A stretch of DNA of 64,000 nt, from positions 11,718-75,717 of the IMG/VR virus record IMGVR_UViG_3300025626_000015; one strand, 5' to 3'. A model generated the notes under the pieces. It searched no databases. It worked only from the letters and a program-made list of their open reading frames with translations, and was not told the DNA's origin. Made by a program: the position numbers and the translations under genes. How positions within the stretch are numbered: the first letter of the stretch is position 1; each line of letters starts with the position of its first letter. Positions 2,961 to 63,997 of this stretch are shown piece after piece. This stretch comes from a virus.

Positions 2961-3024
2961 TTTTTATAAAATTTAAATTTAACAACGGTTAGCTAATGCA
3001 ACCAAAAAACACAGGAGGTTTAAA

Positions 3025-3438
3025 ATGACACATTTTAAAGAAACACTATTATTCAACGATTTCGATTTAGTTTGGAAAAACTTTTTCGATCACAAATCAT
3101 CTTTTTTACCGGTAACATCAAATAAAATGAATTATCCAGTTGATATATTTTCAACTGATAATGGAATACGATTTGAAATTGCTGCAGTAGGTAAAGACAA
3201 ATCAGATATTGAAATTTTAACTGAAGGAGAGACGTTAAGAATTCGATATGACAAAGAATCAGATCCAAAGCGTGAATTTATTCACAAAGGAATTGCTAAA
3301 CGGGCTTTTGATTTTGCTTGGAAAATATCTAAAGAATTAGATTTAACAAAAGCAAATGCTACAATGGATAAAGGATTGTTATCAATTGATATTCCATATG
3401 CTAAGGATAGAGCACCAAAGCGATTAACAATAAAATAA
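3025..3438 (+). CDS. hsp20: small heat shock protein (Hsp20/alpha-crystallin family)
   Basis: YPVDI, FEIAAVGKDKSDIEI, FIHKGIAKRAFDFAW, ATMDKGLLSIDIP, C-terminal LTIK; SD AGGAGGT at 3013-3019. Confidence 0.93.
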   Translation: MTHFKETLLFNDFDLVWKNFFDHKSSFLPVTSNKMNYPVDIFSTDNGIRFEIAAVGKDKSDIEILTEGETLRIRYDKESDPKREFIHKGIAKRAFDFAWKISKELDLTKANATMDKGLLSIDIPYAKDRAPKRLTIK

Positions 3439-3443
3439 GTTAC

Positions 3444-3463
3444 ATGAGACCTACCAACTCAAT
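3444..3463. repeat. right arm of imperfect inverted repeat flanking hsp20
   Basis: ATGAGACCTACCAACTCAAT; complementary to 2939-2960; overlaps start codon of next ORF. Confidence 0.6.
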
Positions 3464-3647
3464 ATATATTCCACCAACAATTGAATTTCAACATAAACGA
3501 TTTAATGTAAAACGTCTTGTAAAAGATGATCCAAATGAAAATATAGAATATTGGAAAAACATTATAGAACATGATACCGTTTTACGTAAAGATGGTTATT
3601 TATGGTTTTTAATTGAAATAACACCTGTTGAAATAATTGAAGAATGA
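3444..3647 (+). CDS. hypothetical protein
   Basis: 67 aa ORF in operon context. Confidence 0.65.
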   Translation: MRPTNSIYIPPTIEFQHKRFNVKRLVKDDPNENIEYWKNIIEHDTVLRKDGYLWFLIEITPVEIIEE

Positions 3648-4144
3648 AAAAAAAGAAATTACCAAAATATATTCAACAAATATTTACAAAACCACAATTT
3701 AAAAAAGACGATCTTGTTAAATATGAATTTCTAGGAGACTCTGGATGGGGAATTGTTAAAAAGATAATAAATGCAAATGATAAAATTACTTACATGGTTA
3801 AAGGAAATGGTTACACGTATCCGTGCGGCATTCAAATCAAAGAATACAGCAGTTACTACGCCGGATCCATCGATTTCGAAACTTCAAAAGCTAGATCAAA
3901 TAATGCAACAGCCGGCGATGCAGAAATTAAAAAACGAATTAACAATTCAACAAGGAAACGAGTTTCTGGATTTAATAGCAACACAATATCAGATACAGGA
4001 TCTGGATATGGGACAACGATTCGTTCTAGGAATGGCAATGAACAACACATTGGATCAGATTCAAAAAGCAAAAAATCAAATAAATCAAGTGCATTAGACA
4101 AAGAAATTGATAAACAACGTAATTTTTTGCGCAAATTTTCATAA
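3644..4144 (+). CDS. hypothetical protein (possible SH3/KOW-like N-terminus, disordered C-terminus)
   Basis: FKKDDLVKY...GIVKKI pattern followed by S/N/K-rich tail. Confidence 0.6.
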   Translation: MKKKKLPKYIQQIFTKPQFKKDDLVKYEFLGDSGWGIVKKIINANDKITYMVKGNGYTYPCGIQIKEYSSYYAGSIDFETSKARSNNATAGDAEIKKRINNSTRKRVSGFNSNTISDTGSGYGTTIRSRNGNEQHIGSDSKSKKSNKSSALDKEIDKQRNFLRKFS

Positions 4145-4181
4145 TACAATATTTATATAAAACAAAAAGAAAGGTTATAAA

Positions 4182-4358
4182 ATGGCAAATTTTGTACACA
4201 AAGACGCGGTTAGAGACTTAATAGTTGATTCAGCTGATATAGTTAGATCAATGGGTAGAGCTATTGAAAATGGTCATATAGACACAAATTCAGCTCTAAA
4301 TAATTTAGGTTCAGCTTTAAGAAAACTAGAAGCTGCTGCAGAATATTTAAGAAAATAA
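4182..4358 (+). CDS. small hypothetical protein, 58 aa, not in ORF track
   Basis: MANFVHKDAVRDLIVDSADIVRSMGRAIENGHIDTNSALNNLGSALRKLEAAAEYLRK; TATTTATA at 4150, AGAAAGG at 4168, TAATG coupling to next gene. Confidence 0.7.
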   Translation: MANFVHKDAVRDLIVDSADIVRSMGRAIENGHIDTNSALNNLGSALRKLEAAAEYLRK

Positions 4359-7782: not shown

Positions 7783-8788
7783 TCCATTTCGTGTTGTATT
7801 TGAAATAGCTGAAGTAATTGACGTAGAACAGATCCGTACCGGAGAAAATATACAAAATTTATATTCTGTTTCCGCTGAAATTTATAATACTGGCACTGTG
7901 CAACATGATGTAAATGTTAGGCCGGCTTCAATATCTATGCAAACTCCTCCTACTGTAGGAGAAATGATTTTAATATTTAATGGTCCAAATCAATATAGTG
8001 GAAAAAAGAAAGTAGAATTACAATGGTATTATTTATGCACATTGCCAATTCAATCTTCTGTATATAAAAATGTATTACCAAGTATAGAGTCATCAAATAT
8101 TAATGATAATGTATTACCAAATAAAATAATTAATCCATTACAGTTATTTGCTGGAGATACATTAATTCAAGGAAGATTTGGTAATTCAATACGATTAGGA
8201 AGTTCTTCAATACCAAAAGAAATTTCACAATATGAATTAGGATCAGAATCTTCATGGAAAGGTACTATTTCTTCGAATACACTAACTTCAGATCCAATTA
8301 TAATATTATCAAATACTACAAATCATTCTACAGACTCAGAAGATCCGTACGGTAGAAAATATACAGTTGAAAATTTAGCTACAGATGTATCTTCTTTATA
8401 TTTAACTACAACACAAAAAATTAATACCTTAACATTGAATAAAAATATCGATAAATCTGGAGGATATCTAGATTATAATAATTCTCAATTAATAGGAACA
8501 GCTGATAGAATTATTCTGAGTTCGAAAACAGATAATATAATATTAGATTCTTCAAATAGGATAAGTTTAAATGCTGATGAAATATTATTAGGATCCGAGG
8601 ATGCGTCAGAACCAATGGTTCATGGTAATGAACTAATACAAATACTAACATTAATAATGAATTCAATTCAAGCTGGAACATTTGGAAGTGGAGCTATTTA
8701 TTCATTACCTGCAGATACATCATCAATTCCTCAAGCTCGAGAAAAATTAAAAAAGTTAACAAGTTCAAAATATTATATGAAAAAATAG
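7775..8788 (+). CDS. baseplate hub/spike protein (gp5/VgrG-like, no lysozyme domain)
   Basis: PPTVGEMILI OB-fold-type motif, GDTLIQGRFGNSIRLG, C-terminal short beta repeats and EPMVHG; sits upstream of gp25/gp6. Confidence 0.65.
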   Translation: MANPFRVVFEIAEVIDVEQIRTGENIQNLYSVSAEIYNTGTVQHDVNVRPASISMQTPPTVGEMILIFNGPNQYSGKKKVELQWYYLCTLPIQSSVYKNVLPSIESSNINDNVLPNKIINPLQLFAGDTLIQGRFGNSIRLGSSSIPKEISQYELGSESSWKGTISSNTLTSDPIIILSNTTNHSTDSEDPYGRKYTVENLATDVSSLYLTTTQKINTLTLNKNIDKSGGYLDYNNSQLIGTADRIILSSKTDNIILDSSNRISLNADEILLGSEDASEPMVHGNELIQILTLIMNSIQAGTFGSGAIYSLPADTSSIPQAREKLKKLTSSKYYMKK

Positions 8789-8800
8789 AAAGTTATAAAT

Positions 8801-15682: not shown

Positions 15683-18600
15683 ATGTTAAAACAATATTCA
15701 AATATTGATCAAATATTAAATTCAAAAGAATCTTTATCTGCAAAACGATTACCTAATGTAGATTATGAATTATTAGATTATCCAGACTATCGTATAAGTT
15801 ACGCTCCTGTATTAAATACAACTAGTAATCAAAAAACAGAATTTCATATATATTCAAATAATTCATGGATAACAGGAAATCATTCAATACAATCTAATAA
15901 TATATCTCCTCAAATTCCAAATGTTACATTTCCTATACCAGTATTAGATATAAATTTATATCATGAATTTGAATCATTAGGAATTACTGGAGGTAATTTT
16001 AGGATTGTTTTAAACTTTTTTGAAAATTTAATTGGAAGTTATGATAATCAATATCTAAAAGTATCAGAAATATCTCCGGACCGTACTGAAATAAAGTTAT
16101 CATTAATTGATAATACAAATCAATCAGCATTAACTCAGTTAGTTAATTTTATTGACGATGTAAATCAGACACAATTAAATGATAATATAATTAATCCAAA
16201 TGTAACAGAAACATATTTATTAAACTTTAGTCAGAATAATTGTATACAATTTGTTAATAGTGTTGTAGTTGGATCTAATTTATATGTAAAATTATTAAAA
16301 CCATTACCAGTTGATATTGATTTAAAATTCAAATGTTGGGTAGTACAAGAAAAAAAATTACCATATATTGATACTGTTGAAATAACACCAGAATCATTAT
16401 TATCAACATTGACAACATTATCTGGTCCTAATTGGCAAGCAAATACAAATGCAGCAAATATTTCTACTGAAACAGATTTAAAATCATGGAATGATTTATT
16501 AGGATCATCAATTCAAACATCTCAACAAATAATTGATTCATATTTTTCTGGATCATTATCTGGAATTGATTTAAATATAGATTATTCTGATTTTAATAAT
16601 TTTATTTTTTATAGTTCTGCAGCAGAACGATTAGCTAATTTCAGATACAAATTAGGATTAATTGAAACATATACATCACAATCTGTAGTTATTTCAAATA
16701 TTAACAGTGCTGTTAGCACAACTAATGCTAATGATTATACTCAATTAAAAACAAATTTAATTTCTGGATTTGATGAGTTTGAAAATTATCTTTACTATGA
16801 GTCATCGTCATTATTATTCACTCATGATCAATATAATTCATATGATGTAACTGTTTCAGAATTAACAGGGAGTTATGTACAACCAGCTCCAAAAAATAAT
16901 TCTACTAAACCATATTCATTAATGTCTGTTACTAGTAGTAATTTTATTACATGGTATGATTCATTATATACATCAGCTAGTTTATATGATAGTTTTAATA
17001 CAAATATATTAACCAATGGTATTCCGGAATTTATAAGATTTGATTCTGATAACTCTGATATGAGTGTATTTGTTAATATGTTAGGTCATCATTTTGATAT
17101 TTTATATACATATATTAGATATCTATCAAAAATATATGATAGAGATGAACATCCAAAAAGAGGAGTTCCAAATCAACTATTATATAATGTAGCAAAACAA
17201 TTTGGATGGAATTTATCAGAAGGAAGTCAAGGATCTGATTTATGGGAATATTTATTTGGAACTAATGAACAAGGAATTCCAATAACAGGATCATTATCTG
17301 TTGGAGATCCTGCAGTTTCGAAACGAGATACAACATATAGTATATGGAGAAGAATTGTTAATAATTTACCATTATTATTGAAATCAAAAGGAACTAAGCG
17401 TAGTATACGGGCTATGTTATCATGTTATGGAATACCACAATCGTTAATTTCGATTAATGAATACGGAGGCCCTAGAATTGAAAGAGCTCCTATATATGAA
17501 ACACAAGAATTTAATTATGCATTAGATTTGATAAATAATGCTGCAGGGACAGTTACTGTAAATTATACAAAACCAATCCAGGCTGTAGAATTAAGATTCC
17601 GAACTGATAATGTACTCAAAAATCCTTCGGTACCATCTACCATGAATTTATTTTCAATTGGTGGAAACGATGTTACAATTGATTTTAACAGCGGAACATT
17701 AGGTACTATTAGAGTTAATACGACTGCGTCTGGATTAATTGACTGTTTTGATGGAGAATATTTGAATACATTATTAAGATCTGGTTCAAATGGGTCATTG
17801 GAAATATTAGCACAAAAATCAAAATATGGAAAAATAATATCTACTGTATCAGCTTCGATAACTGGAAGTTTTCCGGATACTGGACAATTGACTTTAGGTG
17901 GAACTACCGGAGGTTCTAGATTATACGGACAATTGCAAGAATTAAGATTTTGGAGTTCTAGTTTAAACATAGCACCATTTTCAAATCATACAAAAGCTCC
18001 TGGAGCGTATGATGGTAATGTCGACACATATGAAGAATTAGTAGCAAGATTTCCATTAAATGAAAAAGTTAATCATTCTGTAACGTCTAGTTTACAAGGT
18101 GTTGAACCAAACTATTCTAGAATATCTGCTTCGTTTAATAGTTGGTCTACTGCTGAGCCATATAATTCTCAAGAAGAAACATATTATTATGATGCTATTT
18201 CTGTAGGAAATGATACTTTAGATGATAATAAAATTAGATTAGAAGATAATAAATTAATAAGTACATTATCTCCGGATAGTAGAGCAGAACAAAGTCAATA
18301 CGACAAAGCTCCTTTAGATTCAGCAAAGTTAGGAATATTTTATTCTCCGCAGACAATGATTAATGAAGATATTATTGCTCAATTAGGATTTGTAGATTTA
18401 GAAGATTATATTGGAGATCCTGCAGATCAAGATTCTAGATCATATCCAGCTTTAGAAAAATTTTCTGAAACATATTGGAAAAAATATTCAGATAAAAATA
18501 ATATTAATGAATTTTTACGTATATTTAGTTTATTTGATTTATCATTCTTTTCACAAATTGAACAGTTATTACCAGCAAGAGTTGAAAAAATAACTGGATT

Positions 18601-31481: not shown

Positions 31482-31503
31482 TTATAATAGAAAGAAATAT
31501 TTT

Positions 31504-36576: not shown

Positions 36577-38156
36577 TGAGTAATAAACAAAATATAAAGC
36601 AAATAATACAGGAACAGTTTAAAAAATGTGCTGAAGATCCTGTTTATTTTATGCGTCAATATTGTTATATTCAACATCCTACTAAAGGAAAAATTAAATT
36701 TAATTTATTTCCATTTCAAGAAGAATCATTAACTACATTACAGAATAATAGATACAATGTTATTTTAAAATCAAGACAATTAGGTATATCAACACTATCA
36801 GCTGGATATGCTTTATGGTCAATGTTATTTAATGAAGATTTCAACGTATTAGTTATTGCCACTACCCAAGATGTAGCTAAAAACTTAGTGAGTAAAGTTC
36901 AAATAATGAATGAAAACTTGCCAAGTTGGTTAAAAACAAATATAGTTACAAATAATAAATTATCATTAAAATTTGCAAATGGCTCTCAAATCAAAGCAAT
37001 ATCAAGTGCTTCAACAGGTGCACGATCGGAAGCATTATCACTATTAATAGTTGATGAAGCTGCATTTATTAGAAATATTGAAGAAATATGGGTAGCTTCT
37101 CAAGCAACATTATCTACTGGTGGAGGAGCTATAGTATTGTCTACTCCAAATGGTATTGGTAATTGGTTTCATCAAACATGGGCAGATGCTGAAACAGGAG
37201 TTAATGGGTTTGAAACAATTAAATTAGATTGGAAATTACATCCAGAGCGTGATCAATTATGGAGAGATGAGCAAACACAATTATTAGGTGAGCGTGGAGC
37301 AGCACAAGAATGTGATTGTGATTTTATTTCATCTGGACATACTGTAGTAGATGGATTAATTTTACAAGAGTATGAATCAAAATGTATAGAGCCAATTGAA
37401 AAGCGTGGTTATGATAATTCATATTGGATATGGGAGTATCCAGATTATTCAAAAGATTATTTAGTAGTAGCGGATGTTGCTAGGGGAGATGGAGCTGACT
37501 GGTCTGCATTTCATGTAATTGAAGTTCAATCAATAAAACAAGTTGCTGAATATAAAGGAAAAATTCCTCCTAAAGACTTTGGCAATATGTTAGTTACCGT
37601 TGCAACAGAATGGAATAATGCATTATTAGCTATTGAAAATGCTAATATAGGATGGGCTGCAATACAACCAGCATTAGATAGAAGTTATGAAAATTTATTT
37701 TATACATATAAAGACGATGGATATGTAGATTTAGATATACAACTTCGAAAAGGATATGATCAAAAAGATAAATCACAAATGGTACCAGGAGTTTCAACAA
37801 CGTCAAGAACAAGACCATTAATGATATCAGCATTAGAAATGTATATGCGAGAAAAAAGTCCCGTTATACATTCAAAAAGATTAATACAAGAATTATTTGT
37901 TTTCGTTTGGTTAAATAGTAAACCTCAAGCACAAATAGGTTATAACGATGATTTAGTTATGAGTTTTGCAATTGCATTATGGTTACGAGATACTAGTTTA
38001 AAATTAAGACAACAAGGAATTGAATTAAATAAACGAGCTTTATCACAATTTCAAAAAACAGATACTACTATATATACTAACAAAGATAAGAATCCTAATG
38101 ATACTTGGGATTGGAATAATGGTCAAGATAACGAAAATTTAACATGGCTTCTGTAG
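36576..38156 (+). CDS. gp17: terminase large subunit
   Basis: LKSRQLGIST (Walker A), IVDEAAFI (Walker B), LSTPNG, ADVARGDGADWS, NDDLVMS; GTG start. Confidence 0.96.
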   Translation: MSNKQNIKQIIQEQFKKCAEDPVYFMRQYCYIQHPTKGKIKFNLFPFQEESLTTLQNNRYNVILKSRQLGISTLSAGYALWSMLFNEDFNVLVIATTQDVAKNLVSKVQIMNENLPSWLKTNIVTNNKLSLKFANGSQIKAISSASTGARSEALSLLIVDEAAFIRNIEEIWVASQATLSTGGGAIVLSTPNGIGNWFHQTWADAETGVNGFETIKLDWKLHPERDQLWRDEQTQLLGERGAAQECDCDFISSGHTVVDGLILQEYESKCIEPIEKRGYDNSYWIWEYPDYSKDYLVVADVARGDGADWSAFHVIEVQSIKQVAEYKGKIPPKDFGNMLVTVATEWNNALLAIENANIGWAAIQPALDRSYENLFYTYKDDGYVDLDIQLRKGYDQKDKSQMVPGVSTTSRTRPLMISALEMYMREKSPVIHSKRLIQELFVFVWLNSKPQAQIGYNDDLVMSFAIALWLRDTSLKLRQQGIELNKRALSQFQKTDTTIYTNKDKNPNDTWDWNNGQDNENLTWLL

Positions 38157-38163
38157 TTAGTTA

Positions 38164-38171
38164 TATTTATA
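38164..38171 (+). promoter_or_regulatory. putative late promoter TATTTATA
   Basis: Upstream of portal ATG 38192. Confidence 0.7.
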
Positions 38172-38191
38172 ATAAATTAAAAGAATAGATT

Positions 38192-39988
38192 ATGGCATCA
38201 TTAAGAAAACGTTTGCAAAGATTATTTAGTACAAATGTAATCGTTAGAAAATATGGTAAAGATAAATTACGAGTTGTTGATACAAATCGATTACAATCAA
38301 CTGGTAATATAGCACAAAGTAAAATTACTGATCGATATTCAAGATTACATGGAAGTAACAGACATGGATATGGGTCATACGGTTCTGCTTATGGTGGATA
38401 TGATGCAAATTATTATTCTCAACAAAACAGAAAACAATTATATGTTGATTATGAAATGATGGATAAAGATCCTATTATTTCATCAGCGTTAGATATATAT
38501 GCAGATGAATCTACATTAGAAGATCAATTTGGAGATATATTAACAATTAAAACAAATAAAACTAATATTCAAAAAATATTATATAATTTATTTTATGATG
38601 TATTAAACATAGAATTTAATATGTGGCCATGGGTTCGTAATCTTGCTAAATATGGCGACTTCTTTTTGAAACTAGACGTGTCAGACGAAATTGGAATCAT
38701 AAACGCAAGACCATTATCAGCATATGAAGTTGAAAGAATGGAAGAATTTAATCAAGAGTCTGGAGAATATAATATTAAATTTCAACATAATCTGTCAGAT
38801 AATACAGTATATGATGTATTTGAATTAGCACATTTTAGAATGATATCAGATTCTAACTTTTTGCCGTATGGTAGATCAATGTTAGAAGGAGCTAGACAAG
38901 AATTTCAAAAATTAATGATGTTAGAAGATGCAATGTTAATTCATAGAATAATGCGTGCACCTGAAAAAAGAGTTTTTAAAATTGATATTGGTAATATTCC
39001 GCCAAATGAAGTTGATTCGTTTATGGAACAAATTGTTAATAAAATGAAAAAAGTTCCTTATGTCGACAAAAATACAGGAAATTATAATTTAAAATTTAAT
39101 TTAAATAACATGTTAGAAGATTATTATCTTCCAGTAAGAGGAGGAAATAGTCAAACACAAATAGATACATTACCAGGAATGACTTTTACTGGTATCGAAG
39201 ATATTGAATATGTTAAACATAAAATGATGGCTGCTTTAAAAATTCCAAAGCCATTTTTAGGATATGACGAAGGGGTTGAAGGAAAAACTACATTAGCTTC
39301 CATGGATATTAGATTTGCTAGAACAATTGAAAGAATTCAAAAAATTATTTGTTCTGAATTATCTAAAATTGCAATAGTTCATTTATATGCACAAGGGTTT
39401 GAAGGAGAAGATTTAATTGGTTTCGAATTATCATTAACACCTCCATCAATTATTTATGATCAACAAAAAGTTGCATTAATGAATGAAAAAATTCAATTGG
39501 CTGTTGCAATGAAAGATTCTAAATTAGTTTCTGATAAATATGTTTACGAGTATATATTTAATATGTCTGAAGATGAATGGTTAGAAGAAAGAAATAATGT
39601 TGTAGAAGATTTAAAATTGAGATTTAGACAAAATCAAATTGAACAAGAAGGAAATGATCCTACCTTAACAGGCATATCATATGGTACACCACACGATTTA
39701 GCTTCAATGCATCAAAGCACTGATGACGTTATAGACACTGATAAAGGAGGACGTCCTCCAGAAGGAATAAAATATGGTCAACATGCGAATGAATTAGGAT
39801 GGGATCCAACTGGTGCAAAATCATTGAAACAAGCTAGCACGTTTCAGCCTCATACAAAAAAACGTACAAAAACTGAAAATGTTGAAATTCTTAAAAAAAT
39901 TAAACAAAATAGATCTAAAATATTATTTGAAACTAAAAAAGAAACCGATGATACGGGGTCAATGTTGGATGAAAATAATATTTTATAA
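38192..39988 (+). CDS. gp20: portal protein (T4 gp20-like)
   Basis: LEDAMLIHRIMRAPEKRVFKIDIGNIP, MLEDYYLPVRGG, IDTLPG, ALKIP. Confidence 0.96.
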   Translation: MASLRKRLQRLFSTNVIVRKYGKDKLRVVDTNRLQSTGNIAQSKITDRYSRLHGSNRHGYGSYGSAYGGYDANYYSQQNRKQLYVDYEMMDKDPIISSALDIYADESTLEDQFGDILTIKTNKTNIQKILYNLFYDVLNIEFNMWPWVRNLAKYGDFFLKLDVSDEIGIINARPLSAYEVERMEEFNQESGEYNIKFQHNLSDNTVYDVFELAHFRMISDSNFLPYGRSMLEGARQEFQKLMMLEDAMLIHRIMRAPEKRVFKIDIGNIPPNEVDSFMEQIVNKMKKVPYVDKNTGNYNLKFNLNNMLEDYYLPVRGGNSQTQIDTLPGMTFTGIEDIEYVKHKMMAALKIPKPFLGYDEGVEGKTTLASMDIRFARTIERIQKIICSELSKIAIVHLYAQGFEGEDLIGFELSLTPPSIIYDQQKVALMNEKIQLAVAMKDSKLVSDKYVYEYIFNMSEDEWLEERNNVVEDLKLRFRQNQIEQEGNDPTLTGISYGTPHDLASMHQSTDDVIDTDKGGRPPEGIKYGQHANELGWDPTGAKSLKQASTFQPHTKKRTKTENVEILKKIKQNRSKILFETKKETDDTGSMLDENNIL

Positions 39989-40881: not shown

Positions 40882-41582
40882 AATCATTTTTAAAAGAAAT
40901 CGAATCTAAGTTTCAAGAAATAAACGAAAAAGATTGGGATGGCGACGGCGAACAAGAATCTGCTAGCGATGAATATATGGGCGTTAAAGATAAAGCTATA
41001 AAAAAAGCAATGAAGAAAGAAAACGCAAAACCAGACTTTTTAGATTTAGACAATGATGGTGACACTGAAGAAGATATGAAAGATGCTGCTGCAGCTAACG
41101 AAGCTATTGTAGCAAAAGATGAGATTGAATTAGAAAAATTATCAAAAGACCCAAAATTCAAAGATCAAGATATTAAATTAGCAGAAGCAGATATAGAAGA
41201 ACAAAATGTAACCGGAGCAATAGCCGGCTATCAGACACCAAATGCATTTTCAACAAAAGCACAAGCAAAAAAGAAAAAGCAAATGAAATATGAGTCTGTA
41301 CAAAAAGCACTTGACAAAAAATATGAAGCAATGATTGAATCATATTCTAGATTTGCAACAAGTAATCCAAAATCAACTCCATCTCAAACTGTTAATGGCA
41401 CAATTAAAGAAGTAGCAAAAAAATTACAAGAAATAGAGCAATTAGTTAAATATACATCTAGATTAAAAACAGAATCTGGAATTGCCGGATCATCATATGG
41501 AAAGTCTACTCATAATGCATTATCAAAAATTTCTGAACGATTATTAAAAATATCAGAACGAGTAAGAAGTTTAGGAGAATAA
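40878..41582 (+). CDS. head-module protein with DxDxDG motifs
   Basis: DWDGDGEQE and DLDNDGDTEE; LKE/INE/IEE sites. Confidence 0.7.
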   Translation: MKSFLKEIESKFQEINEKDWDGDGEQESASDEYMGVKDKAIKKAMKKENAKPDFLDLDNDGDTEEDMKDAAAANEAIVAKDEIELEKLSKDPKFKDQDIKLAEADIEEQNVTGAIAGYQTPNAFSTKAQAKKKKQMKYESVQKALDKKYEAMIESYSRFATSNPKSTPSQTVNGTIKEVAKKLQEIEQLVKYTSRLKTESGIAGSSYGKSTHNALSKISERLLKISERVRSLGE

Positions 41583-41583
41583 T

Positions 41584-42207
41584 ATGAGTAAGAATTTATT
41601 ATTAGAATATATACCATTTAAGCCTATCGGCCCTGTTAATGAGCAAATGGCTTCACAATTTGGAGTTCCTGGCGGATTAGTAGTACAAGGGGTATTACAA
41701 CGAGCAGGAGCTAAGAATCAAAACGGAAGAGTATATCCTAAACATATATTAGATAGAGAAGCTAAAAAATATCAAAAAGAATATATTGATCAAAATAGAG
41801 CATTAGGGGAATTAGATCATCCTGAATCTTCTGTTGTTAATTTAAATAACGTTTCTCATAACATTTTAAAAATGTGGTGGGATAAAGATGATTTAATGGG
41901 AGCCGTACAAATATTAGAAACACCAGCTGGAAAAATATTAAAATCATTATTCGATGCTGGTATTACATTAGGAATATCTAGTAGAGGATTAGGCTCAGTA
42001 AAAGAATTATATAAAGAATCTGCAGTAGAAGTGCAGGAAGATTTTGAATTAATTTGTTTTGATTTTGTTTCAAATCCTTCAACCCATGGAGCATTTTTAA
42101 GACCAATGAATGAATCAGTAAACAAATCAACAAAAGATTATAAAAAAGTAAATGATATTATTACATCAATATTATGTGATAGTGGAAAATGTAGGATTTT
42201 ACCATGA
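41584..42207 (+). CDS. gp21: prohead protease (T4 gp21-like)
   Basis: NQNGRVYP, ALGELDHP, VSH, TPAGKIL, GISSRGLGS, DFVSNPS. Confidence 0.95.
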   Translation: MSKNLLLEYIPFKPIGPVNEQMASQFGVPGGLVVQGVLQRAGAKNQNGRVYPKHILDREAKKYQKEYIDQNRALGELDHPESSVVNLNNVSHNILKMWWDKDDLMGAVQILETPAGKILKSLFDAGITLGISSRGLGSVKELYKESAVEVQEDFELICFDFVSNPSTHGAFLRPMNESVNKSTKDYKKVNDIITSILCDSGKCRILP

Positions 42208-42570: not shown

Positions 42571-42599
42571 TTTGAACTTATAAAATAAATTATTATAAT
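42571..42599 (+). promoter_or_regulatory. sigma70-like promoter (class A) for the bS21 unit
   Basis: TTTGAA-N17-TATAAT upstream of ATG 42611. Confidence 0.6.
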
Positions 42600-42610
42600 A
42601 AAGGAAATAG

Positions 42611-42982
42611 ATGTCAAACATTGATAACATGTATCATCAATATTTTGGAATGAAATCTCAAACTAATGAAGCTGATTTAATTAATAAAATATCAGACTAC
42701 AAAGGAGGATTTCTTTATAAATTAATTGATCCAGCAACAGCAGGAAATGTAAAAGCTGATATACAAGCATTTTTAAATAAAAAAGGAATGCATGTTATTA
42801 AAACTAAATTTGACGATGCATCTGGAAAAGGATTTTTTTATGTTAGATTAGGAGAAGATCCTGCAAAAGAATCTCAACGAATTCAAGGATTCATAAGTCA
42901 ATTACCAGAAGTAGAAAAATTTAAGTTTACATTACGACCAATACAAAAACAACAAGTTACACCAAATCCTTCAAATGAATAA
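42611..42982 (+). CDS. hypothetical protein, predicted ferredoxin-like fold (ACT- or bS6-like)
   Basis: beta-alpha-beta-beta-alpha-beta hydrophobicity pattern; overlaps bS21 start. Confidence 0.6.
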   Translation: MSNIDNMYHQYFGMKSQTNEADLINKISDYKGGFLYKLIDPATAGNVKADIQAFLNKKGMHVIKTKFDDASGKGFFYVRLGEDPAKESQRIQGFISQLPEVEKFKFTLRPIQKQQVTPNPSNE

Positions 42983-43237: not shown

Positions 43238-43266
43238 AAGGTCCTGATTAAGTTCAGGACCTTTTT
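43238..43266 (+). terminator. intrinsic terminator after bS21
   Basis: AAGGTCCTGA-ttaagt-TCAGGACCTT then TTT-ACTG. Confidence 0.85.
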
Positions 43267-43287
43267 ACTGTTTTTTAACTTCATCTA

Positions 43288-43295
43288 TATTTATA
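43288..43295 (+). promoter_or_regulatory. putative late promoter TATTTATA for scaffold-capsid operon
   Basis: Just after terminator, about 100 nt before ATG 43397. Confidence 0.7.
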
Positions 43296-43396
43296 GTAAA
43301 TACATTATCTCTATATATAATGTCAATATAATCAATTATTCTATTAAGATTACAAATAATCTTATTTCCAAAATAAAAATTTAAGGAGAACAAGTA

Positions 43397-44431
43397 ATGA
43401 ACGGGAAATCGGACTTACTAAAAGAAGCAATTGCAGATGCCAAAGCCGTTAAGGAAACAGCATTAGCAAACGCTAAAATAGCTCTTGAAGAAGCTTTTGC
43501 TCCTAGAATCGAAGCAATGCTATCAACAAAACTTTCTGAAGATTTATACGAAGACGAAATGGAAGACGACGTCGCAGCTCCAGTAGCTGACGCACCTGTC
43601 GAAGAACATGACGTTATGTATGAGCCTGAAGCAGAAGGCGGAGAAGATATGGAAGCACCTGCACCAGAAATGGATGTTGAAATGGATATGGAAATGCCTG
43701 CTGAAGAACCAGTAGTTGCAGATGACATGGAAATGGAAGGCATGATGTATGATGTAGATGAAGATCCATCTGATCCTAATAGTAGTGTTGAAGAAGATCT
43801 AGAATTAGAAGCAATCATAAGAGAGTTAGAAGAAGATTTAAATGAAGAAGAATTAACTGAAGATGGTCATAATAATGACGCAGCTGATTCTACAGACTCA
43901 AAAGGAAATGATTTAATGTCAGAACCAAAAGAAATGAAAAATGAAGAATTCAATATTGATGAAATCATTGAAGAAATTCTTTCGGAAGAAGACAAAGAAG
44001 AACCTAAAGAAAAAGTAGAAGAAGGTGAGCATGATGATAAAGAATCTAAAGAAAAAGTAGAAGAAATGACTGAAGAATTAACTGAAGCATATGACACTAT
44101 TGAATCTTTAAGAGACACTATCAATGAAGTTAATCTTTTAAATGCAAAACTTCTTTACACGAATAAATTATTCAGAAATTTTGAATTATCAGAAAGTCAA
44201 AAAATGACAGTTATCGAAAATTTCGATAGAGCTGGTAATACAAGAGAAGTTAAATTAGTATTTAGTACATTAGCAGAAAATTTTACAGTTCCTGTAAAAA
44301 AGAGACAAATGGTAAAAGAAGGCTCAGCCTCTAAACCAGTTGAATCAACTGCACCTGTATCTAAATCAATAATCAATGAAGGTAATCAATTAGCTAACAG
44401 ATGGAAGAAGTTAGCCGGATTACTAGATTAA
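43397..44431 (+). CDS. prohead core/scaffolding protein (gp22-like position)
   Basis: Highly acidic, coiled coil, many [ILV]-x-E sites, directly upstream of major capsid. Confidence 0.8.
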   Translation: MNGKSDLLKEAIADAKAVKETALANAKIALEEAFAPRIEAMLSTKLSEDLYEDEMEDDVAAPVADAPVEEHDVMYEPEAEGGEDMEAPAPEMDVEMDMEMPAEEPVVADDMEMEGMMYDVDEDPSDPNSSVEEDLELEAIIRELEEDLNEEELTEDGHNNDAADSTDSKGNDLMSEPKEMKNEEFNIDEIIEEILSEEDKEEPKEKVEEGEHDDKESKEKVEEMTEELTEAYDTIESLRDTINEVNLLNAKLLYTNKLFRNFELSESQKMTVIENFDRAGNTREVKLVFSTLAENFTVPVKKRQMVKEGSASKPVESTAPVSKSIINEGNQLANRWKKLAGLLD

Positions 44432-44448
44432 AAAAGGAAAATAAAAAA

Positions 44449-46180: not shown

Positions 46181-46190
46181 ACTGTTTTGA

Positions 46191-46198
46191 TATTTATA
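46191..46198 (+). promoter_or_regulatory. putative late promoter TATTTATA
   Basis: Upstream of ATG 46213. Confidence 0.65.
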
Positions 46199-46212
46199 AT
46201 AAAAGAAGTACT

Positions 46213-46488
46213 ATGGCAGCCCCAAGAACAAAATATTCAATACAAGCAAGAATAAAATATAAAGGTAATTTAGTTGACGTTTTAGATAGAATACGAGCTA
46301 TACGTATGGTATTAATGGTTCATATAGAACAAGATTTAGGCAAAGGATCTGAATTAATAACAATAAAAGTTTTATCTCCATATTCAGCTAAAAAAACGTT
46401 TCAAGCAATTCAACAATTAAGTACAAGAAAAATTGAGACATTGGAACAAATGGCATTATTAAATAGTACACTAACAAAATTACAATAA
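46213..46488 (+). CDS. hypothetical protein
   Basis: 91 aa, alternating beta/alpha pattern. Confidence 0.7.
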   Translation: MAAPRTKYSIQARIKYKGNLVDVLDRIRAIRMVLMVHIEQDLGKGSELITIKVLSPYSAKKTFQAIQQLSTRKIETLEQMALLNSTLTKLQ

Positions 46489-46500
46489 GAAAGAATTATA

Positions 46501-55276: not shown

Positions 55277-55294
55277 CAATATAGAAAGTTATAT

Positions 55295-55560: not shown

Positions 55561-55621
55561 CTTATTGTTGGCCCGAAAGGGAAGTGGGCAGTATTAATAC
55601 TGTAACCAACCATAATAGGAG
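55561..55621 (+). ncRNA. candidate structured cis-regulatory RNA (three-way junction) in fibre 5' UTR
   Basis: GTTGG/CCAAC closing stem, CCC-GAAA-GGG tetraloop hairpin, GCAGTA-ttaa-TACTGT hairpin; GC-rich in an AT-rich genome; abuts AGGAG. Confidence 0.55.
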
Positions 55622-55627
55622 AAGTAA

Positions 55628-59072: not shown

Positions 59073-59094
59073 AAAATTAAAAGAAAGTTACAAC

Positions 59095-59395: not shown

Positions 59396-59422
59396 ATAAA
59401 CATAATTATAGGAGAATAATCG

Positions 59423-61894
59423 ATGGCCGAAAGAATTGTATCGCCAGGCGTATTTACTAATGAAATTGATCAGTCATTTTTACCTCAAGGAATTGGTGAA
59501 ATAGGAGCTGCTTTAATTGGACCAACTATTAAAGGTCCAGCACAAATACCAACAAAAGTAAAAAATTACGCTGAATTTGAAAGTATATTCGGATCATATA
59601 CAGAAGATTCATATTTACCATTTACAGCAAAAGAATATCTAGATAATGCAGGAACATTAACTGTTACAAGATTATTGTATGAAAATGGATATAAATTAAC
59701 AAATGGAGCATTAGCAGTTATTGCTGAATCTGGTTCTGGAGCAGGAAAGAAAAGCTTTGTATCCCATATTCTTCATCCAACCGTTCCTATAAATTATTCA
59801 GCTGATTCAAATATATTTGAAAAGTCATCTATATCAAATGGAGAGTCAGGATCATTCTCTGTAAAAATTTCTGGTTCATATGGAGTTGACGCAACATATC
59901 CTGGTTATTCTGGATTTGCTTCAACAACAGGTGTTAATACAGTTGTATCAGCTTCTATTAATGATTCTAGTAATGCATATATCGAAAAAATATTTGGAAG
60001 AAATCCAAAGTCAATTGATTATCCAGTATATGTTCAATATGAAAACAAAAATATTAAAAGTCAATTTAATAATTTAGGCAATGTATCTGTTAAAATGCAG
60101 ATAATAAGTAATTATGAATATTTACAAGACTTTAAATCACCATCTACCCCATTTATTACATCACAAAAAATAAGTGGAACAACAAAAAACTTATTTAAAG
60201 CACATGCATTATCTCATGGCAATGGAGAAAATTATGATTTTAAAATAGGTATACAAAATATTATTACTGCCGCAGAAAATCCAGAGCAAACCGGCTATGG
60301 TAAATTTGATTTAGTAGTAAGAGGAGTTAATAATAAAAATATATTAGCATCTCCATTTGATTATAATGACACTGATATATCTCCTAACATATTAGAATCA
60401 TTTACTAACTTAAGTTTAAATCCAGACTCACCTAGATATATTTCCAAAGTAATTGGAGATGTACATCAATATATAGATGCTGCATCTAAAAGACTAGTTG
60501 AATCAGGAACTTATGAAAATAATTCAAAATATATAAGAATTGAAGTTGCAACATCTGTTGAAAATAAAATTAATCCTAGTGCCGTACCATTTGGATTCAA
60601 AGCAATAAGTTCTCCAATTGCAAATCCGTCTGCGAGTATTAATTTAGTTGCTACTTCAAATATAACAACCCAAATTGGGTCATCAGGATATAATTCTAAT
60701 ATATTCTTTGGATTTGATTATACTAACGAAAATAATTTAAATTATCTTGCTCCTACTCCAACGTCTGGATCGTCAGTTGGATCAAACGTAGACTTTTATT
60801 TAGGAGATCTCAATCAAGACGCAGCAGCTAGCTTCCCGTCTTCAGCTCCATATAGTGGAAGTATTGGAACTGCATTAGATGCTGGAATTATAGATTCTAG
60901 AGTAGCAGTTTCTACTAGAAAATTTATTATTCCTATTCAAGGAGGATTTGATGGTTCTAGACCAAATCTACCAAAATATGCAGGAGAAAATATATCTTCC
61001 ACTAATGCATTTGGATTTGATTGTTCTGCAGATGGGAAATCTGGAACGACTGCATATAAAAATGCATTTAACACATTATCAAATACAGATCAATACGACT
61101 TTAATATGTTAATAACACCAGGTGTAGTTCATGAATTACATTCATCAGTAACAAATGCTGGTATAACATTATGCGAAGCTAGAGCAGATGCATTTTATGT
61201 AATGGATGCAGTAGGAAAAACAAGTAATATTAGCACTGCTAAAACTACCGTTAAAACATTAGATTCAAGTTATGCTGCAACATATTATCCATGGGTATTA
61301 ACTCAACCGGTAGGAGCTCCTAAAGCATTATGGGTTCCACCATCTGTAGTTGTACCTAGTGTTTTATCATTTACTGATAGAATTGCACATCCATGGTTTG
61401 CCCCAGCTGGATTAAATAGAGGTGGTTTGTCTATGGTATCTAAAACATATATAAGACTTTCTCAATCAGATCGTGATGAATTATATGAAAATAGAATTAA
61501 TCCAATTGCAAACTTTCCAAATGAAGGAGTATGTATTTGGGGACAAAAAACATTACAAGCTTTACCGTCTGCTTTAGATAGAGTAAACGTTAGAAGATTA
61601 TTAATTACAGTTAAAAAATTCATTGCTTCGGCAACAAGATTTTTAGTATTCGAACAAAATACAGCATCAACGAGAAATAGATTCTTGCAAATAGTAAATC
61701 CTTATTTACAAGATATAGTAGCTCAGTCAGGTTTAAGTGCATTCCGTGTAATAATGGATGAAACAAATAACACTCCAGATGTAATTGATCAAAACTTTTT
61801 AATAGGTCAATTATTTTTACAGCCAACCAGAACTGCGGAATTTATTGTGTTAGACTTCACTATTCAACCAACTGGTGCTTCATTTCCTGATTAA
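59423..61894 (+). CDS. gp18: tail sheath protein (gp18-like)
   Basis: SPGVFTNEID, WFAPAGLNRG, INPI, WGQKTL, DRVNVRRLL, FEQN, QPTRTAEFI. Confidence 0.96.
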   Translation: MAERIVSPGVFTNEIDQSFLPQGIGEIGAALIGPTIKGPAQIPTKVKNYAEFESIFGSYTEDSYLPFTAKEYLDNAGTLTVTRLLYENGYKLTNGALAVIAESGSGAGKKSFVSHILHPTVPINYSADSNIFEKSSISNGESGSFSVKISGSYGVDATYPGYSGFASTTGVNTVVSASINDSSNAYIEKIFGRNPKSIDYPVYVQYENKNIKSQFNNLGNVSVKMQIISNYEYLQDFKSPSTPFITSQKISGTTKNLFKAHALSHGNGENYDFKIGIQNIITAAENPEQTGYGKFDLVVRGVNNKNILASPFDYNDTDISPNILESFTNLSLNPDSPRYISKVIGDVHQYIDAASKRLVESGTYENNSKYIRIEVATSVENKINPSAVPFGFKAISSPIANPSASINLVATSNITTQIGSSGYNSNIFFGFDYTNENNLNYLAPTPTSGSSVGSNVDFYLGDLNQDAAASFPSSAPYSGSIGTALDAGIIDSRVAVSTRKFIIPIQGGFDGSRPNLPKYAGENISSTNAFGFDCSADGKSGTTAYKNAFNTLSNTDQYDFNMLITPGVVHELHSSVTNAGITLCEARADAFYVMDAVGKTSNISTAKTTVKTLDSSYAATYYPWVLTQPVGAPKALWVPPSVVVPSVLSFTDRIAHPWFAPAGLNRGGLSMVSKTYIRLSQSDRDELYENRINPIANFPNEGVCIWGQKTLQALPSALDRVNVRRLLITVKKFIASATRFLVFEQNTASTRNRFLQIVNPYLQDIVAQSGLSAFRVIMDETNNTPDVIDQNFLIGQLFLQPTRTAEFIVLDFTIQPTGASFPD

Positions 61895-61935: not shown

Positions 61936-62502
61936 ATGTCAATAAACATAGATTTACTTAAAAAATTACCAAATCAAGGACAAACCCAACTAAATCAAAA
62001 CTTAGCAGGAGTTGATTACACTGACTTATTTGCTAAAGCATTTGATTGGGAACCTAAAATGACCAATAGGTTTATTATGGAATTTGAAGATATTCCATCT
62101 CATTTAATTAAAGCTTCTGGTAGACCAAGTGTTAATAATGGTAACGTAGTGTTAGATCACATTAATGTTGAAAGAAAAGTTAAAGGTAAAACAAGATGGC
62201 AAGATATCACTATAACATTGTATGATGCTATCGTACCGTCAGGCGCTCAAGCAGTAATGAATTGGGTTCGTAATCATCATGAATCATTAACAGGTAGAGA
62301 TGGATATGCAACCGGACCAGCTAAATATAAAAGAAACATTAATTTTTACTCATTATCACCAACCGGCGAGAAAATAGAAGAGTGGGAATTAAATGGAGCT
62401 TATATTAGTGATGCATCATTTGGTGATATGGATTGGTCAAATGAAGCAGCTGTAGAGATTTCATTAACATTGTCATACGACTTTGCAGTATTAAAATATT
62501 AA
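61936..62502 (+). CDS. gp19: tail tube protein (gp19-like)
   Basis: NRFIM, GKTRWQDITITLYD, WELNGAY, LTLSYD; follows sheath. Confidence 0.9.
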   Translation: MSINIDLLKKLPNQGQTQLNQNLAGVDYTDLFAKAFDWEPKMTNRFIMEFEDIPSHLIKASGRPSVNNGNVVLDHINVERKVKGKTRWQDITITLYDAIVPSGAQAVMNWVRNHHESLTGRDGYATGPAKYKRNINFYSLSPTGEKIEEWELNGAYISDASFGDMDWSNEAAVEISLTLSYDFAVLKY

Positions 62503-62514
62503 TTTATTAAAAAC

Positions 62515-62540
62515 AATGGGAGTATTTTGCTCCCATTTTT
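62515..62540 (+). terminator. intrinsic terminator after tube gene
   Basis: AATGGGAGT-atttt-GCTCCCATT then TTT-ACTG. Confidence 0.85.
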
Positions 62541-62611
62541 ACTGGTTTATAATATTTATATATAAATAAGTCATCATCATTCATACTGTTACAATAATAG
62601 CCCGGTAACAT

Positions 62612-63184
62612 ATGAAATATCTATATTTTCTTTTATTCTTTATTTGTAATTACAATATATATTGTCAAGATACTATCTTCCGGTTTGAAGAAAAACCTAT
62701 AGTTGGAAAGATATTGTTTACTAATCATGATATTATATTTTATAAAAAAAATAATTTTATAAAAGATATACCATCAGAACTTGTATTTGGATATAAAAAA
62801 AATAATAAATTGTCTATATTATACAAAGAAAAAGGACAGCCATTTACCACAATACAAATGAACGATTATATAATAGGCAGGACTAAAGGATATCAAGATT
62901 ATAATCCAGGAATTCCATTTACAGTCGGATTTTTTAGTACTTATTTTTACACATATTATAATACAAGAGGGTTAACAAGAAATCCAAAATTTTCATCATT
63001 AGCATTTACTGTAGTTCCAACAATGTTATTTACATATATAAAGCCCAGAACCAATAAATTATGGAGCTTAGAAAAAAGAATAGGATATCAATTATCTAGA
63101 TCTGAAAGAAATCAATTAACTAGTTTTATAGGTGCTATACTAGGCACGGCATTTATATATACACTCTACTTTTCAAGTAACTAA
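62612..63184 (+). CDS. membrane protein with signal peptide
   Basis: MKYLYFLLFFICNYNIYC-QDTI; about three C-terminal hydrophobic segments. Confidence 0.7.
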   Translation: MKYLYFLLFFICNYNIYCQDTIFRFEEKPIVGKILFTNHDIIFYKKNNFIKDIPSELVFGYKKNNKLSILYKEKGQPFTTIQMNDYIIGRTKGYQDYNPGIPFTVGFFSTYFYTYYNTRGLTRNPKFSSLAFTVVPTMLFTYIKPRTNKLWSLEKRIGYQLSRSERNQLTSFIGAILGTAFIYTLYFSSN

Positions 63185-63192
63185 TATTTATA
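63185..63192 (+). promoter_or_regulatory. putative late promoter TATTTATA
   Basis: Upstream of ATG 63218. Confidence 0.65.
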
Positions 63193-63217
63193 ATAAAGTT
63201 ATTAAAAAGGAGTTTAT

Positions 63218-63997
63218 ATGACAAAAGTAACAGATCGTTACAACGACAAAAATTTAATTGATTTAGCAAAACAACAATATGTAGATAAAAAGACGTCTAC
63301 TATTCCATCTGAAATAGTGCAATTACCATCTCAAGGAAAAATATATCCAAAAGATCATCCATTGCGAGAAGGAATAATTGAAATACGTCATATGACTGCA
63401 TATGATGAAGATATATTAACTAATTTATCATATATTCAACAAGGGGTTGTTTTAGACAAATTAATAGAATCTATTACACTACAAGATATAAATGTTTCAG
63501 AACTAGCTAGTTGTGATGTTGAAGCTATTATATTAACATCTAGAATTTTAGCATACGGTAGTGATTATCCAGTAACAGTAACAGATCCAAAAACTAATAG
63601 TATATTAAATAGAACAATTGACTTAACCAAAGTGCAATACAAAGATTTTGAGTTAACTACAAACGAAAATGGAGAATCAAGTTTTAATTGCTCTAATGAC
63701 TCAGTTATTAAATTTTCATATTGTTTAAAACAAAATAAAAATACTAACAATGAACGATTAATATCTTCATTTTTGTTAAGCACAATTCGTGAGGTAGACG
63801 GAAAACGTACTTCTGAAGAAATTGATGAATTTTTAAAATATAAATTTTCGTTAGCAGATTCTAGAAAATTTCAAAGATATGTTTCAGATAATGCTCCAGC
63901 AATTTTAAAAGAATATGAGTTTGAAGGTGAAGATGGAGGCACCTTTACTGCCGGGTTTCAATTTGGACCAGAACTTCTTTGGCCTGAAACCAACTGA
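63218..63997 (+). CDS. gp26: baseplate hub assembly protein / tail assembly chaperone (gp26-like)
   Basis: VQLPSQG, IRHMTAYDEDIL, RILAYGSDY, C-terminal LLWP. Confidence 0.72.
   Translation: MTKVTDRYNDKNLIDLAKQQYVDKKTSTIPSEIVQLPSQGKIYPKDHPLREGIIEIRHMTAYDEDILTNLSYIQQGVVLDKLIESITLQDINVSELASCDVEAIILTSRILAYGSDYPVTVTDPKTNSILNRTIDLTKVQYKDFELTTNENGESSFNCSNDSVIKFSYCLKQNKNTNNERLISSFLLSTIREVDGKRTSEEIDEFLKYKFSLADSRKFQRYVSDNAPAILKEYEFEGEDGGTFTAGFQFGPELLWPETN

Follow-up and report, generated by a model that had tools for sequence, protein, structure and literature searches.

Shine-Dalgarno-like leaders accompany a phage-encoded bS21 in a marine T4-like phage with a likely Bacteroidota host

The window studied here is a 64,000-nucleotide (nt) stretch of phage DNA, bases 11718-75717 of the linear, 75,717-bp IMG/VR virus record IMGVR_UViG_3300025626_000015, which is ~45% complete. 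It carries a gene for the ribosomal protein bS21 and, before the start codons of many other genes, short purine-rich boxes that are complementary to the 3' end of Bacteroidia 16S rRNA and resemble Shine-Dalgarno (SD) sequences. Across related phages, such leaders are frequent where bS21 is encoded and stay near background where it is not. This association hints that the phage protein re-enables the SD signal in a likely Bacteroidota host. From the comparisons presented below, we estimate at about one half the probability that phage bS21 restores SD reading on phage messages, through ribosomes carrying the variant protein. Among ribosomal proteins encoded by viruses, bS21 is the commonest, and how ribosomes would tell phage from host mRNA is unexplained. 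Bacteroidia add a puzzle of their own: they keep a perfect anti-SD (ASD) sequence and yet hide it.

Pairing was measured as the duplex energy (ΔG) between a leader and the 16S tail CACCUCCUUUCU, and a leader was called SD-like at ΔG <= -4 kcal/mol. The tail used rests on nucleotides named in studies of Flavobacterium johnsoniae and not on a 16S sequence read from the host (PMC7797042, PMC13000457). The nucleotides named are A1534, U1537, C1538, U1541, U1542, C1543, and U1544 (PMC7797042), and the pairs G-15:U1541 and C-20:U1544 agree with the tail used (PMC13000457). By this measure, 46% of the phage's 91 starts are SD-like; the figures for 1665 other ATGs and for shifted windows are 21% and 14%. 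The mean energy of 9-nt windows is lowest at position -14 (-2.0, for a baseline of about +0.6). A comparison with shuffled controls, which an earlier sequence-only reading of this DNA had suggested, gave enrichment over a composition-matched background (dinucleotide shuffles, z = -5.6, 0 of 300 as low).

The same signal is visible in base and word composition. G makes up 18-23% of the bases at -13 to -7 and 2% at -6, with a background of about 10%, and AGGA begins at -13 to -9 in 22 of 91 genes. Between -18 and -5, AGGA is found 23 times, AGGAG six times, and AGAAAG seven times, vs. 6 and 1, 0 and 0, and 0 and 1 in two upstream control windows. Expected counts are far lower than those observed for AAAGGA (9 vs. 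0.6), AAGGA (13 vs. 1.6), AGAAAG (7 vs. 0.5), and AGGA (23 vs. 5.6). The enriched words AGAAAG, AAAGGA, AAGGAG, and AGGAG tile AGAAAGGAGG, the complement of the Bacteroidia 16S tail. Complementarity, placement about 4-10 nt before the start codon, and enrichment, which characterize SD elements, are all found here, as are the signs of selection described below.

All the AGGAG-, AGAAAG-, and AAAGTT-type boxes listed by the sequence-only reading are present (Table 1 gives the main ones), with AGGAG itself at 55617, 59410, and 63207 in the fiber, sheath, and baseplate hub leaders. Its proposal that they are parts of one extended complement of the 16S tail holds for the AGGAG and AGAAAG words. It fails for AAAGTT, which abuts the ATGs at 947, 5583, and 23510 (3 of 90 starts vs. 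0 of 1665 other ATGs): this word is not complementary to the tail and belongs to a separate leader motif. The AGAAAG boxes lie 5-8 nt ahead of the ATGs at 4182, 8801, 31504, 46501, 55295, and 59095. Within the window, 36 of 68 genes are SD-like. For genes less than 20 kb from the capsid gene, the proportion is 60%, vs. 37% elsewhere.

Judged by their conservation, the boxes are under selection. Among 59 IMG/VR loci whose bS21 is 45-90% identical to that of the window (705 gene starts), G reaches 29-36% at -10 to -7, and 59% of the starts have ΔG <= -4 vs. 10% of control windows. Of 25 distinct relatives, some with as little as 47% protein identity, 24 have exactly TTTAAGGAGAA ahead of the scaffold gene and one has AAGGAGT; the spacer that follows varies in length and sequence while the box is held. 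In 29 distinct relatives, the protease box is AGGAGAA (25), GGGAGAA (2), or GGGGAG (2), with a G-rich core in every case, and it lies inside the upstream open reading frame (ORF), where nearby synonymous sites are variable. The box ATAAAGGAAAT of gene g42611 is kept in relatives, with AAAGGTAAG in more distant ones, and the boxes TAGGATAA (gene 47730) and ATAAAGGATTT (gene 48251) are likewise kept. At the AGAAAG box at 46487, relatives have AATAAGGA or AAAGGAA instead, which suggests that the two classes are variants of a single element.

The link with bS21 comes from 80 further loci gathered via the capsid protein (55-94% identical), every locus being treated with the same simple gene caller and energy measure. 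The comparison is made on the 92 loci that contain both the protease and capsid genes, so that the slot occupied by bS21 is covered. In the 73 loci with bS21, the mean SD-like fraction is 0.59 and the mean ΔG -4.2; in the 19 without it, these values are 0.16 (own control 0.20) and -1.1 (Mann-Whitney p ~5e-11, the loci not being phylogenetically independent). Orthologous capsid leaders are SD-like in 17 of 17 cases in the other bS21-bearing clades vs. 0 of 19 in bS21-less phages, where they are A/C-rich, e.g., ACAAACAAAAACAAAAAC. For orthologous protease leaders, the proportions are 88% with bS21 and 16% without. In whole genomes, the bS21-less Flavobacterium phage vB_FspM_immuto (NC_055915, hereafter immuto) and phage G008 have SD-like fractions of 0.08 (control 0.28) and 0.13 (control 0.25), below their own controls. 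The bS21-bearing genomes G001, G002, and G005 have 0.34-0.38, rising to 0.53-0.72 for genes less than 20 kb from the capsid gene. Sister clades are similar in G+C content.

On a FastTree phylogeny of the capsid protein, the bS21-less immuto clade (15 rows) is sister, with support 96, to the 29-row bS21-bearing clade of the window phage; the other bS21-less entries are one 3-row clade and one single row. To judge from the tree, the ancestor of the phage group probably had bS21 in this slot, with two to three later losses. Two phages carry bS21 and are SD-poor: the 484-kb uncultured phage LR756508 (L064), with a fraction of 0.25, and L136, with 0.10. Their bS21 has an N-terminal extension of only 7 residues or none, vs. 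at least 13 extra residues in all SD-rich phages, so that a tie between extension length and SD richness is suggestive (n = 2). Finally, the same capsid clade includes Mel-JY01 (L063, PP395634), a phage that was reported on Microcystis; its bS21 occupies the same slot (17185-17412), with a basic tail that lacks the tyrosine discussed below. Strong SD sites precede 51-80% of its genes and probably reflect an SD-reading host.

The 78-residue bS21 of the window also matches PHROG 21469 and bS21 chains in the PDB (to E 2e-8). With a profile built from the phage clade, the best solved structures are the proteins of Porphyromonas gingivalis (9i5v, 37.1 bits) and F. johnsoniae (7jil_z, 31.5 bits). 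The alignment spans the C-terminal helix and places phage Y68 on Tyr54 of F. johnsoniae (7jil_z). The Bacteroidia signature tyrosine, 12 residues past KPS, is therefore present in the phage protein, as the sequence-only reading had cautioned from the KPS-x11-Y pattern. Close relatives have Y, H, or F at this position, and Arg replaces the aromatic residue in the bS21-bearing clade L141/G005, which bears a host marker described below. Bacteroidia bS21 is described as having a C-terminal part far less basic than its counterparts elsewhere (Jha et al., 2021; PMC7797042); the phage tail ITKRRQKQAAIYKQKISDMYSD has six basic and two acidic residues and is less basic than that of Mel-JY01. The N-terminal extension, MNKQIKHHKSIVPG, is basic and 14 residues long. 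A tblastn search of cultured phage records with the window bS21 gave no match, even though Mel-JY01 has an annotated RpsU; the small size and the divergence of these proteins explain the failure.

No SD-like box precedes the bS21 gene itself: its leader has a ΔG of +0.8 in the window, and mean values in three bS21-bearing clades, this one and two others, are +0.2, -0.7, and +0.6. This fits a protein first made by unmodified ribosomes. The gene sits in a small cassette with g42611, between a predicted promoter and a terminator-like hairpin (Table 1). The promoter is of the TTGAAC/TATAAT type and not of the type TATTTATA(A/T)AA, probably the late promoter of this phage group; hence, a polymerase form other than that serving the late genes may read the cassette.

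Occurrences of g42611 are confined to this bS21-bearing clade, and the gene is in every case immediately ahead of bS21. Its AlphaFold2 model (core pLDDT ~84) has a β-α-β-β-α-β fold, whose top match is an S6 entry (2j5a, Z 10.7, root-mean-square deviation 2.6, 86 residues aligned). ACT, NikR, and MgtC domains are nearly tied with it (Z about 9-10.5), and F. johnsoniae bS6 has Z 9.2. No Pfam or PHROG match was found for the protein, no PF01250 match in G000, G001, G002, G005, and G006 at E <= 1, and S6 was not among the matches of its profile in the PDB. An identification as bS6 would be at most tentative, the likeness being at the level of fold only and shared with ACT-type domains, with no sequence link to S6 found. 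Homologs of bS6 and bS18 were sought in the phages and not found.

Other motifs occur in the leaders. One, AAGTTAYA or GTT directly before ATG, is not anti-SD-complementary and stands ahead of the bS21 gene, itself SD-less, in three of the clades that carry bS21. GTT occupies -3 to -1 in ~10% of genes (19-26 of ~215) in immuto, G008, G002, and G005, vs. 4 of 234 in Mel-JY01. The motif may reflect the kind of start context used by the host, or serve in processing or as part of a promoter. The motif TATTTATA(A/T)AA recurs 15-30 nt upstream of many structural genes in the window phage and in immuto (L062). Genes right behind it, such as the portal gene and g46213, are preceded by short A-rich leaders that hold no SD. 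Inspection of orthologous leaders found no SD-like box on the late genes for portal, g46213, and the large terminase (TerL); those of portal and g46213 hold only the promoter-like motif TATTTATAATAAA and a short A-rich leader, and that of TerL has neither motif nor box.

A Bacteroidota host, put forward as probable by the sequence-only reading, is likely. The nearest cultured relative is immuto, whose capsid protein is 57% identical. Sorting domains of the type IX secretion system (T9SS) are found in three complete bS21-bearing relatives. In G001, a complete 173-kb relative with a 69% identical bS21 in the same 7-row clade of the capsid tree, a 1043-residue protein ends in a T9SS type A sorting domain (PF18962, 56.9 bits vs. 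a cutoff of 27). G005, from a different bS21-bearing clade, has a type A domain as well (56.7 bits), and G002, in the 29-row clade of the window phage, has a type B CHU_C domain (PF13585, 51.7 bits). Type A domains are also present in the bS21-less phages immuto (37.8 bits) and G008 (30.4 bits); a search of Mel-JY01 and LR756508 found none. T9SS sorting domains are not known outside Bacteroidota and a few allied lineages of the Fibrobacteres-Chlorobi-Bacteroidetes (FCB) group, and their occurrence in relatives makes a Bacteroidota host likely. The structure matches of bS21 agree with this, and the most likely host, on these sequence grounds, is a T9SS-bearing member of the class Bacteroidia, e.g., a marine flavobacterium. 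Searches with bS21 itself gave no further lead. Its patterns matched a single contig among prokaryote genomes, JBBWVS010000082.1 (L002, 12 kb, from a gammaproteobacterial metagenome-assembled genome), over a short stretch (55% over residues 25-46); this may be a phage contig binned into that genome. A protein atlas search returned viral clusters only, and the 393 relatives from a representative-library search were not used for host inference.

How a phage bS21 could act is suggested by work on F. johnsoniae, in which the 16S tail is held by bS21, bS18, and bS6 (PMC7797042). The tail is freed, and SD-ASD pairing allowed, when bS21 is lost or when the pocket is mutated in bS21, bS18, or bS6 (PMC13000457, PMC9976891). 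Wild-type ribosomes need a 13-bp SD-ASD helix, whose formation drives bS21 out, and a single mismatch is enough to prevent initiation; ribosomes lacking bS21 translate SD-less mRNA poorly (PMC13000457). The phage boxes, of only 5-8 nt, should therefore not work on wild-type host ribosomes. In the model that we propose, the AAAGGAG-type boxes 4-9 nt before start codons would be selected SD elements pairing with the host 16S tail CCUCCUUUCU, which bS21, bS18, and bS6 of the Bacteroidia host would hide, leaving ordinary ribosomes SD-blind. Phage bS21, made from its separate small cassette without an SD box of its own and by coupling to g42611 translation, would replace host bS21 on the 30S platform. 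There it would fail to hold the tail in its pocket, or yield easily to a short SD-ASD helix, which the basic 14-residue N-terminal extension may stabilize, and would retain its structural role in the mRNA exit channel. Ribosomes modified in this way would read SD sites and, since only phage messages would have them, would favor these messages, above all the abundant head and tail ones, over host mRNA. We infer the class of the host, the incorporation of phage bS21 into ribosomes and, from the correlation, the release of the anti-SD. Only tentatively do we extend the model to a virus-encoded ribosomal protein that switches SD reading on in SD-blind Bacteroidia ribosomes, with SD as a private channel for late mRNA, the N-terminal extension as the decisive part, and g42611 as a possible second platform factor of the bS6 kind.

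Several observations weigh against the variant-bS21 model. Y68 is kept, and the aromatic residue at this position, which stacks on A1534, is thought to steer the tail into the pocket. Its retention argues against a simple loss of sequestration, and Chen et al. (2022) read the kept aromatic residue as "works like the host protein" (PMC9723584). Translation of bS21 is coupled to that of g42611, which has an SD-like box, AAAGGAA. AGAAAG boxes begin only ~1 nt upstream of AGGAG boxes (mean 5' positions about -13.5 and -12.3), where a single fixed rRNA register predicts 4 nt. SD-like boxes exceed background outside the late block too (0.30-0.37 vs. 0.13-0.24), and Mel-JY01 shows the same trend of stronger sites near the capsid gene; the specificity of SD sites for late genes is hence weak, and confinement to late genes is not claimed. 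Such specificity was also sought, and rejected, in the clustering of adjacent genes, which is weak (p = 0.015 to 0.2), and in a correlation with TATTTATA density, significant in G005 only. The capsid tree requires only about three changes of bS21 status, which gives two to three independent contrasts. These all go in the same direction, but with so few pairs a sign test or independent-contrast test cannot reach significance. Finally, a Bacteroidota host is suggested only through relatives, no T9SS domain having been found in the 45%-complete fragment, and a difference of host between clades could explain both the bS21 and the SD traits.

Taken to its end, this last point makes the boxes ordinary SD sites for an SD-reading host, one from the FCB group outside Bacteroidia or from another marine lineage. 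SD-blind Bacteroidia would then be the hosts of the bS21-less clades, and both traits would follow the host. Mel-JY01, with its same-slot bS21 and strong SD sites, lends weight to this account, as do the few changes of bS21 status, the enrichment outside the late block, and the indirect nature of the case for a Bacteroidota host. We nevertheless consider it unlikely. T9SS type A or B domains occur in three complete genomes that bear both bS21 and SD sites as well as in bS21-less ones, and not in Mel-JY01. The window bS21 is of the Bacteroidia type by its Tyr54 equivalent and its best structure matches, unlike the protein of Mel-JY01, and the GTT-ATG start context is common to G002, G005, immuto, and G008 and not to Mel-JY01. 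In addition, G+C content is similar between sister clades, and SD frequencies of 34-46% are well under those of Mel-JY01. Alternatively, SD sites may be read by bS21-free ribosomes, if infection depletes or displaces host bS21 (by rpsU shut-off, a phage protease, or SD-led mRNA) and phage bS21 has another task, such as SD-less translation or countering a stalling defense. The F. johnsoniae anti-SD is indeed free without bS21, which the SD-ASD helix ejects (PMC13000457), and McNutt et al. speculate on phage products promoting bS21 exchange (PMC9976891). Moreover, phage bS21 keeps Tyr54 and may sequester the tail as the host protein does, and some late genes (portal, g46213, TerL) are SD-less. 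This scheme leaves unexplained, however, why bS21-less relatives from the same host group have no SD sites. Reportedly, ribosomes without bS21 show lower activity on SD-less mRNA (PMC13000457), and the phage SD sites are short, 5-7 bp vs. the 13 bp of wild-type ribosomes. We regard it as quite improbable.

Two further explanations dispense with rRNA pairing at present. The purine-rich box could bind bS1 or an RNA-binding protein of the phage, mark a site of RNA processing, or simply arise where leaders are rich in A and G, as might be suspected from the weakness of many boxes (AAAGGA, TAGGAT, AGAAAG), from the lack of a common rRNA register for AGAAAG and AGGAG, and from the existence of the non-complementary leader motif (AAGTTAYA, GTT-ATG). 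We give this little credence: every enriched 5- or 6-mer falls on AGAAAGGAGG, which complements the tail exactly; a spacing of 4-9 nt is typical of classical SD elements; the boxes that are strongest and most conserved read AAGGAG or AGGAGG, both canonical; and the dinucleotide-shuffle control excludes a composition artifact. The boxes could also be neutral relics from an ancestor on an SD-reading host, invisible to present ribosomes. Bacteroidia ribosomes are described as SD-blind, so that sites might drift freely, and the phage group seems to have had bS21 in this slot from the start. But in relatives of 47-93% protein identity the scaffold box is invariant and the protease box retains its G-rich core, even though bases next to them and synonymous sites differ, and bS21-less relatives have lost the boxes completely, even to depletion below background. 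Relics thus do not persist, and this explanation appears very improbable.

The assignment of the window to a T4-like myovirus rests on its genes for a gp20-type portal, a gp21-type prohead protease, a gp23-type capsid protein matching gp23 homologs, a contractile sheath, and a T4 baseplate hub (PF07230, PF03420, PF04984/PF17482, PF12322). Profile searches back the gene labels HSP20, prohead protease S77, T4 portal, sheath, and T4 baseplate hub, the last having been called gp26-like in the sequence-only reading. Alignment with relatives and the box AAAAGGAA point to ATG 44449 as the real capsid start. The window has a G+C content of ~29%, every gene on the + strand, and no tRNA. An ORF for an RpoD-like sigma factor opens the record upstream of the window (contig 13-726). 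DNA of this phage is found in marine metagenomes from at least 10 studies. Contigs identical to the bS21 region exist in RNA libraries; DNA is possible in those libraries, so they are no evidence of expression.

Table 1. Coordinates of features in the window. ΔG values (kcal/mol) refer to pairing with the 16S tail.
Feature	Position	Strand	Basis or remark
Hsp20 gene	3025-3438	+	HSP20 family profile
Large terminase (TerL) gene	36651-38156	+	profile search
gp20-type portal gene	38192-39988	+	profile search
Head and tail gene block	40027-63997	+	SD-like 22/27 genes, vs. 14/41 upstream of block
Prohead protease S77 gene, gp21-type	41584-42207	+	profile search
Predicted sigma-70-like promoter TTGAAC-16-TATAAT, before g42611-bS21 cassette	42572-42599	+	consensus scan, 10/12 matches
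g42611, 123-residue ferredoxin-like protein	42611-42982	+	stop overlaps bS21 start by 8 nt
Phage bS21 gene, 78 residues	42975-43211	+	PF01165 31.3 bits vs. cutoff 27; TIGR00030 29.5 vs. 28.95
Intrinsic-terminator-like hairpin closing bS21 cassette	43238-43263	+	10-bp stem and T run; 1 found vs. 0.2 expected
Acidic scaffold protein gene	43397-44431	+	T4-type module
gp23-type capsid gene	probable true start 44449	+	longest ORF begins at 44401, inside scaffold gene
Tail sheath gene	59423-61894	+	sheath domains
T4-type baseplate hub gene	63218 onward	+	PF12322
Strongest SD-like box CAGGAGGTT (AGGAGG at 3013), hsp20 ATG 3025	3012-3020	+	ΔG -11.5
SD-like box TAGGAGA, protease ATG 41584	41572-41578	+	ΔG -7.9; within end of upstream ORF
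SD-like box TAAAGGAA, g42611	42599-42606	+	ΔG -6.0
SD-like box TAAGGAGA (AAGGAG at 43382), scaffold ATG 43397	43382-43389	+	ΔG -8.2; spacer 7
SD-like box AAAAGGAA, major capsid start 44449	44432-44439	+	ΔG -6.2
SD-like box TAGGAGA, 903-residue fiber-like gene, ATG 55628	55616-55622	+	ΔG -7.3
SD-like box TAGGAGA, tail sheath ATG 59423	59409-59415	+	ΔG -7.3
SD-like box AAAAGGAGT, baseplate hub ATG 63218	63205-63213	+	ΔG -8.8
AGAAAG-class box AAGAAAGA, ATG 46501	46487-46494	+	
Further AGAAAG-class boxes	4167-4175, 8786-8793, 31488-31495, 55282-55289, 59081-59088	+	
AAGTTAYA/GTT motif	42955-42963, 8789-8796, 55285-55292, 59084-59091; abutting ATGs 947, 5583, 23510		
TATTTATA(A/T)AA motif, examples	38163-38175, 43286-43296, 46190-46200		

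If the link between bS21 and SD leaders is causal, the hidden anti-SD of Bacteroidia would be a latent channel opened by a variant bS21, with SD sites tagging phage messages. From the sequence data, it looks like a phage takeover of the ribosome with a concrete cis-element. Gene and host prediction for Bacteroidota phages would change, because SD-rich leaders now count as evidence against Bacteroidota hosts. The hypothesis is testable in the existing F. johnsoniae system. A literature search targeted at phage bS21 and SD leaders found no paper linking them, and within the literature searched the association appears unreported: neither Mizuno et al. (2019; PMC6375957) nor Al-Shayeb et al. (2020) connected bS21 with SD, and Chen et al. 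(2022; ISME Commun, PMC9723584) proposed that phage bS21 selects phage transcripts, with the mRNA feature unnamed and binding sites unanalyzed.

The closest parallel is with the freshwater Bacteroidetes myoviruses of that last study (PMC9723584). These are T4-like, have bS21 among the terminase, portal, prohead protease, and capsid genes, with Tyr, His, or Phe at the Tyr54 position and a divergent N-terminal part, and a swap into host ribosomes favoring late phage transcripts was proposed for them. The window phage differs in being marine, in having bS21 on the same strand as its neighbors, and in the covariation of SD-like leaders with bS21. Immuto (NC_055915) shares the terminase-to-capsid gene order, the TATTTATA promoter-like motif, and a T9SS-domain gene, but has neither bS21 nor SD-like leaders (8% of genes vs. 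its own background of 28%). The Pelagibacter phage HTVC008M is likewise a T4-like marine phage with bS21, and its protein is cited in PMC9976891 as able to enter Escherichia coli ribosomes (Mizuno et al., 2019, PMC6375957); its host belongs to another phylum, and that study is without SD analysis. Among cellular systems, reports on Francisella tularensis describe bS21 paralogs whose exchange alters the mRNA preference of the ribosome, in a host that, unlike Bacteroidia, is not SD-blind (PMC9578407, PMC12262407). Finally, autoregulation of rpsU in F. johnsoniae uses the same tail-sequestering machinery, with bS21-deficient ribosomes reading SD (PMC7797042, PMC9976891, PMC13000457, PMC13000453). 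There, a single host gene with a 13-bp SD is controlled and the switch is the absence of bS21; in the phage, dozens of genes with SD sites of 5-8 nt would be, and the proposed switch is a variant bS21. Host rpsU is alone among Bacteroidia genes in having a long SD (PMC13000457), and the SD-less phage bS21 gene is its opposite.

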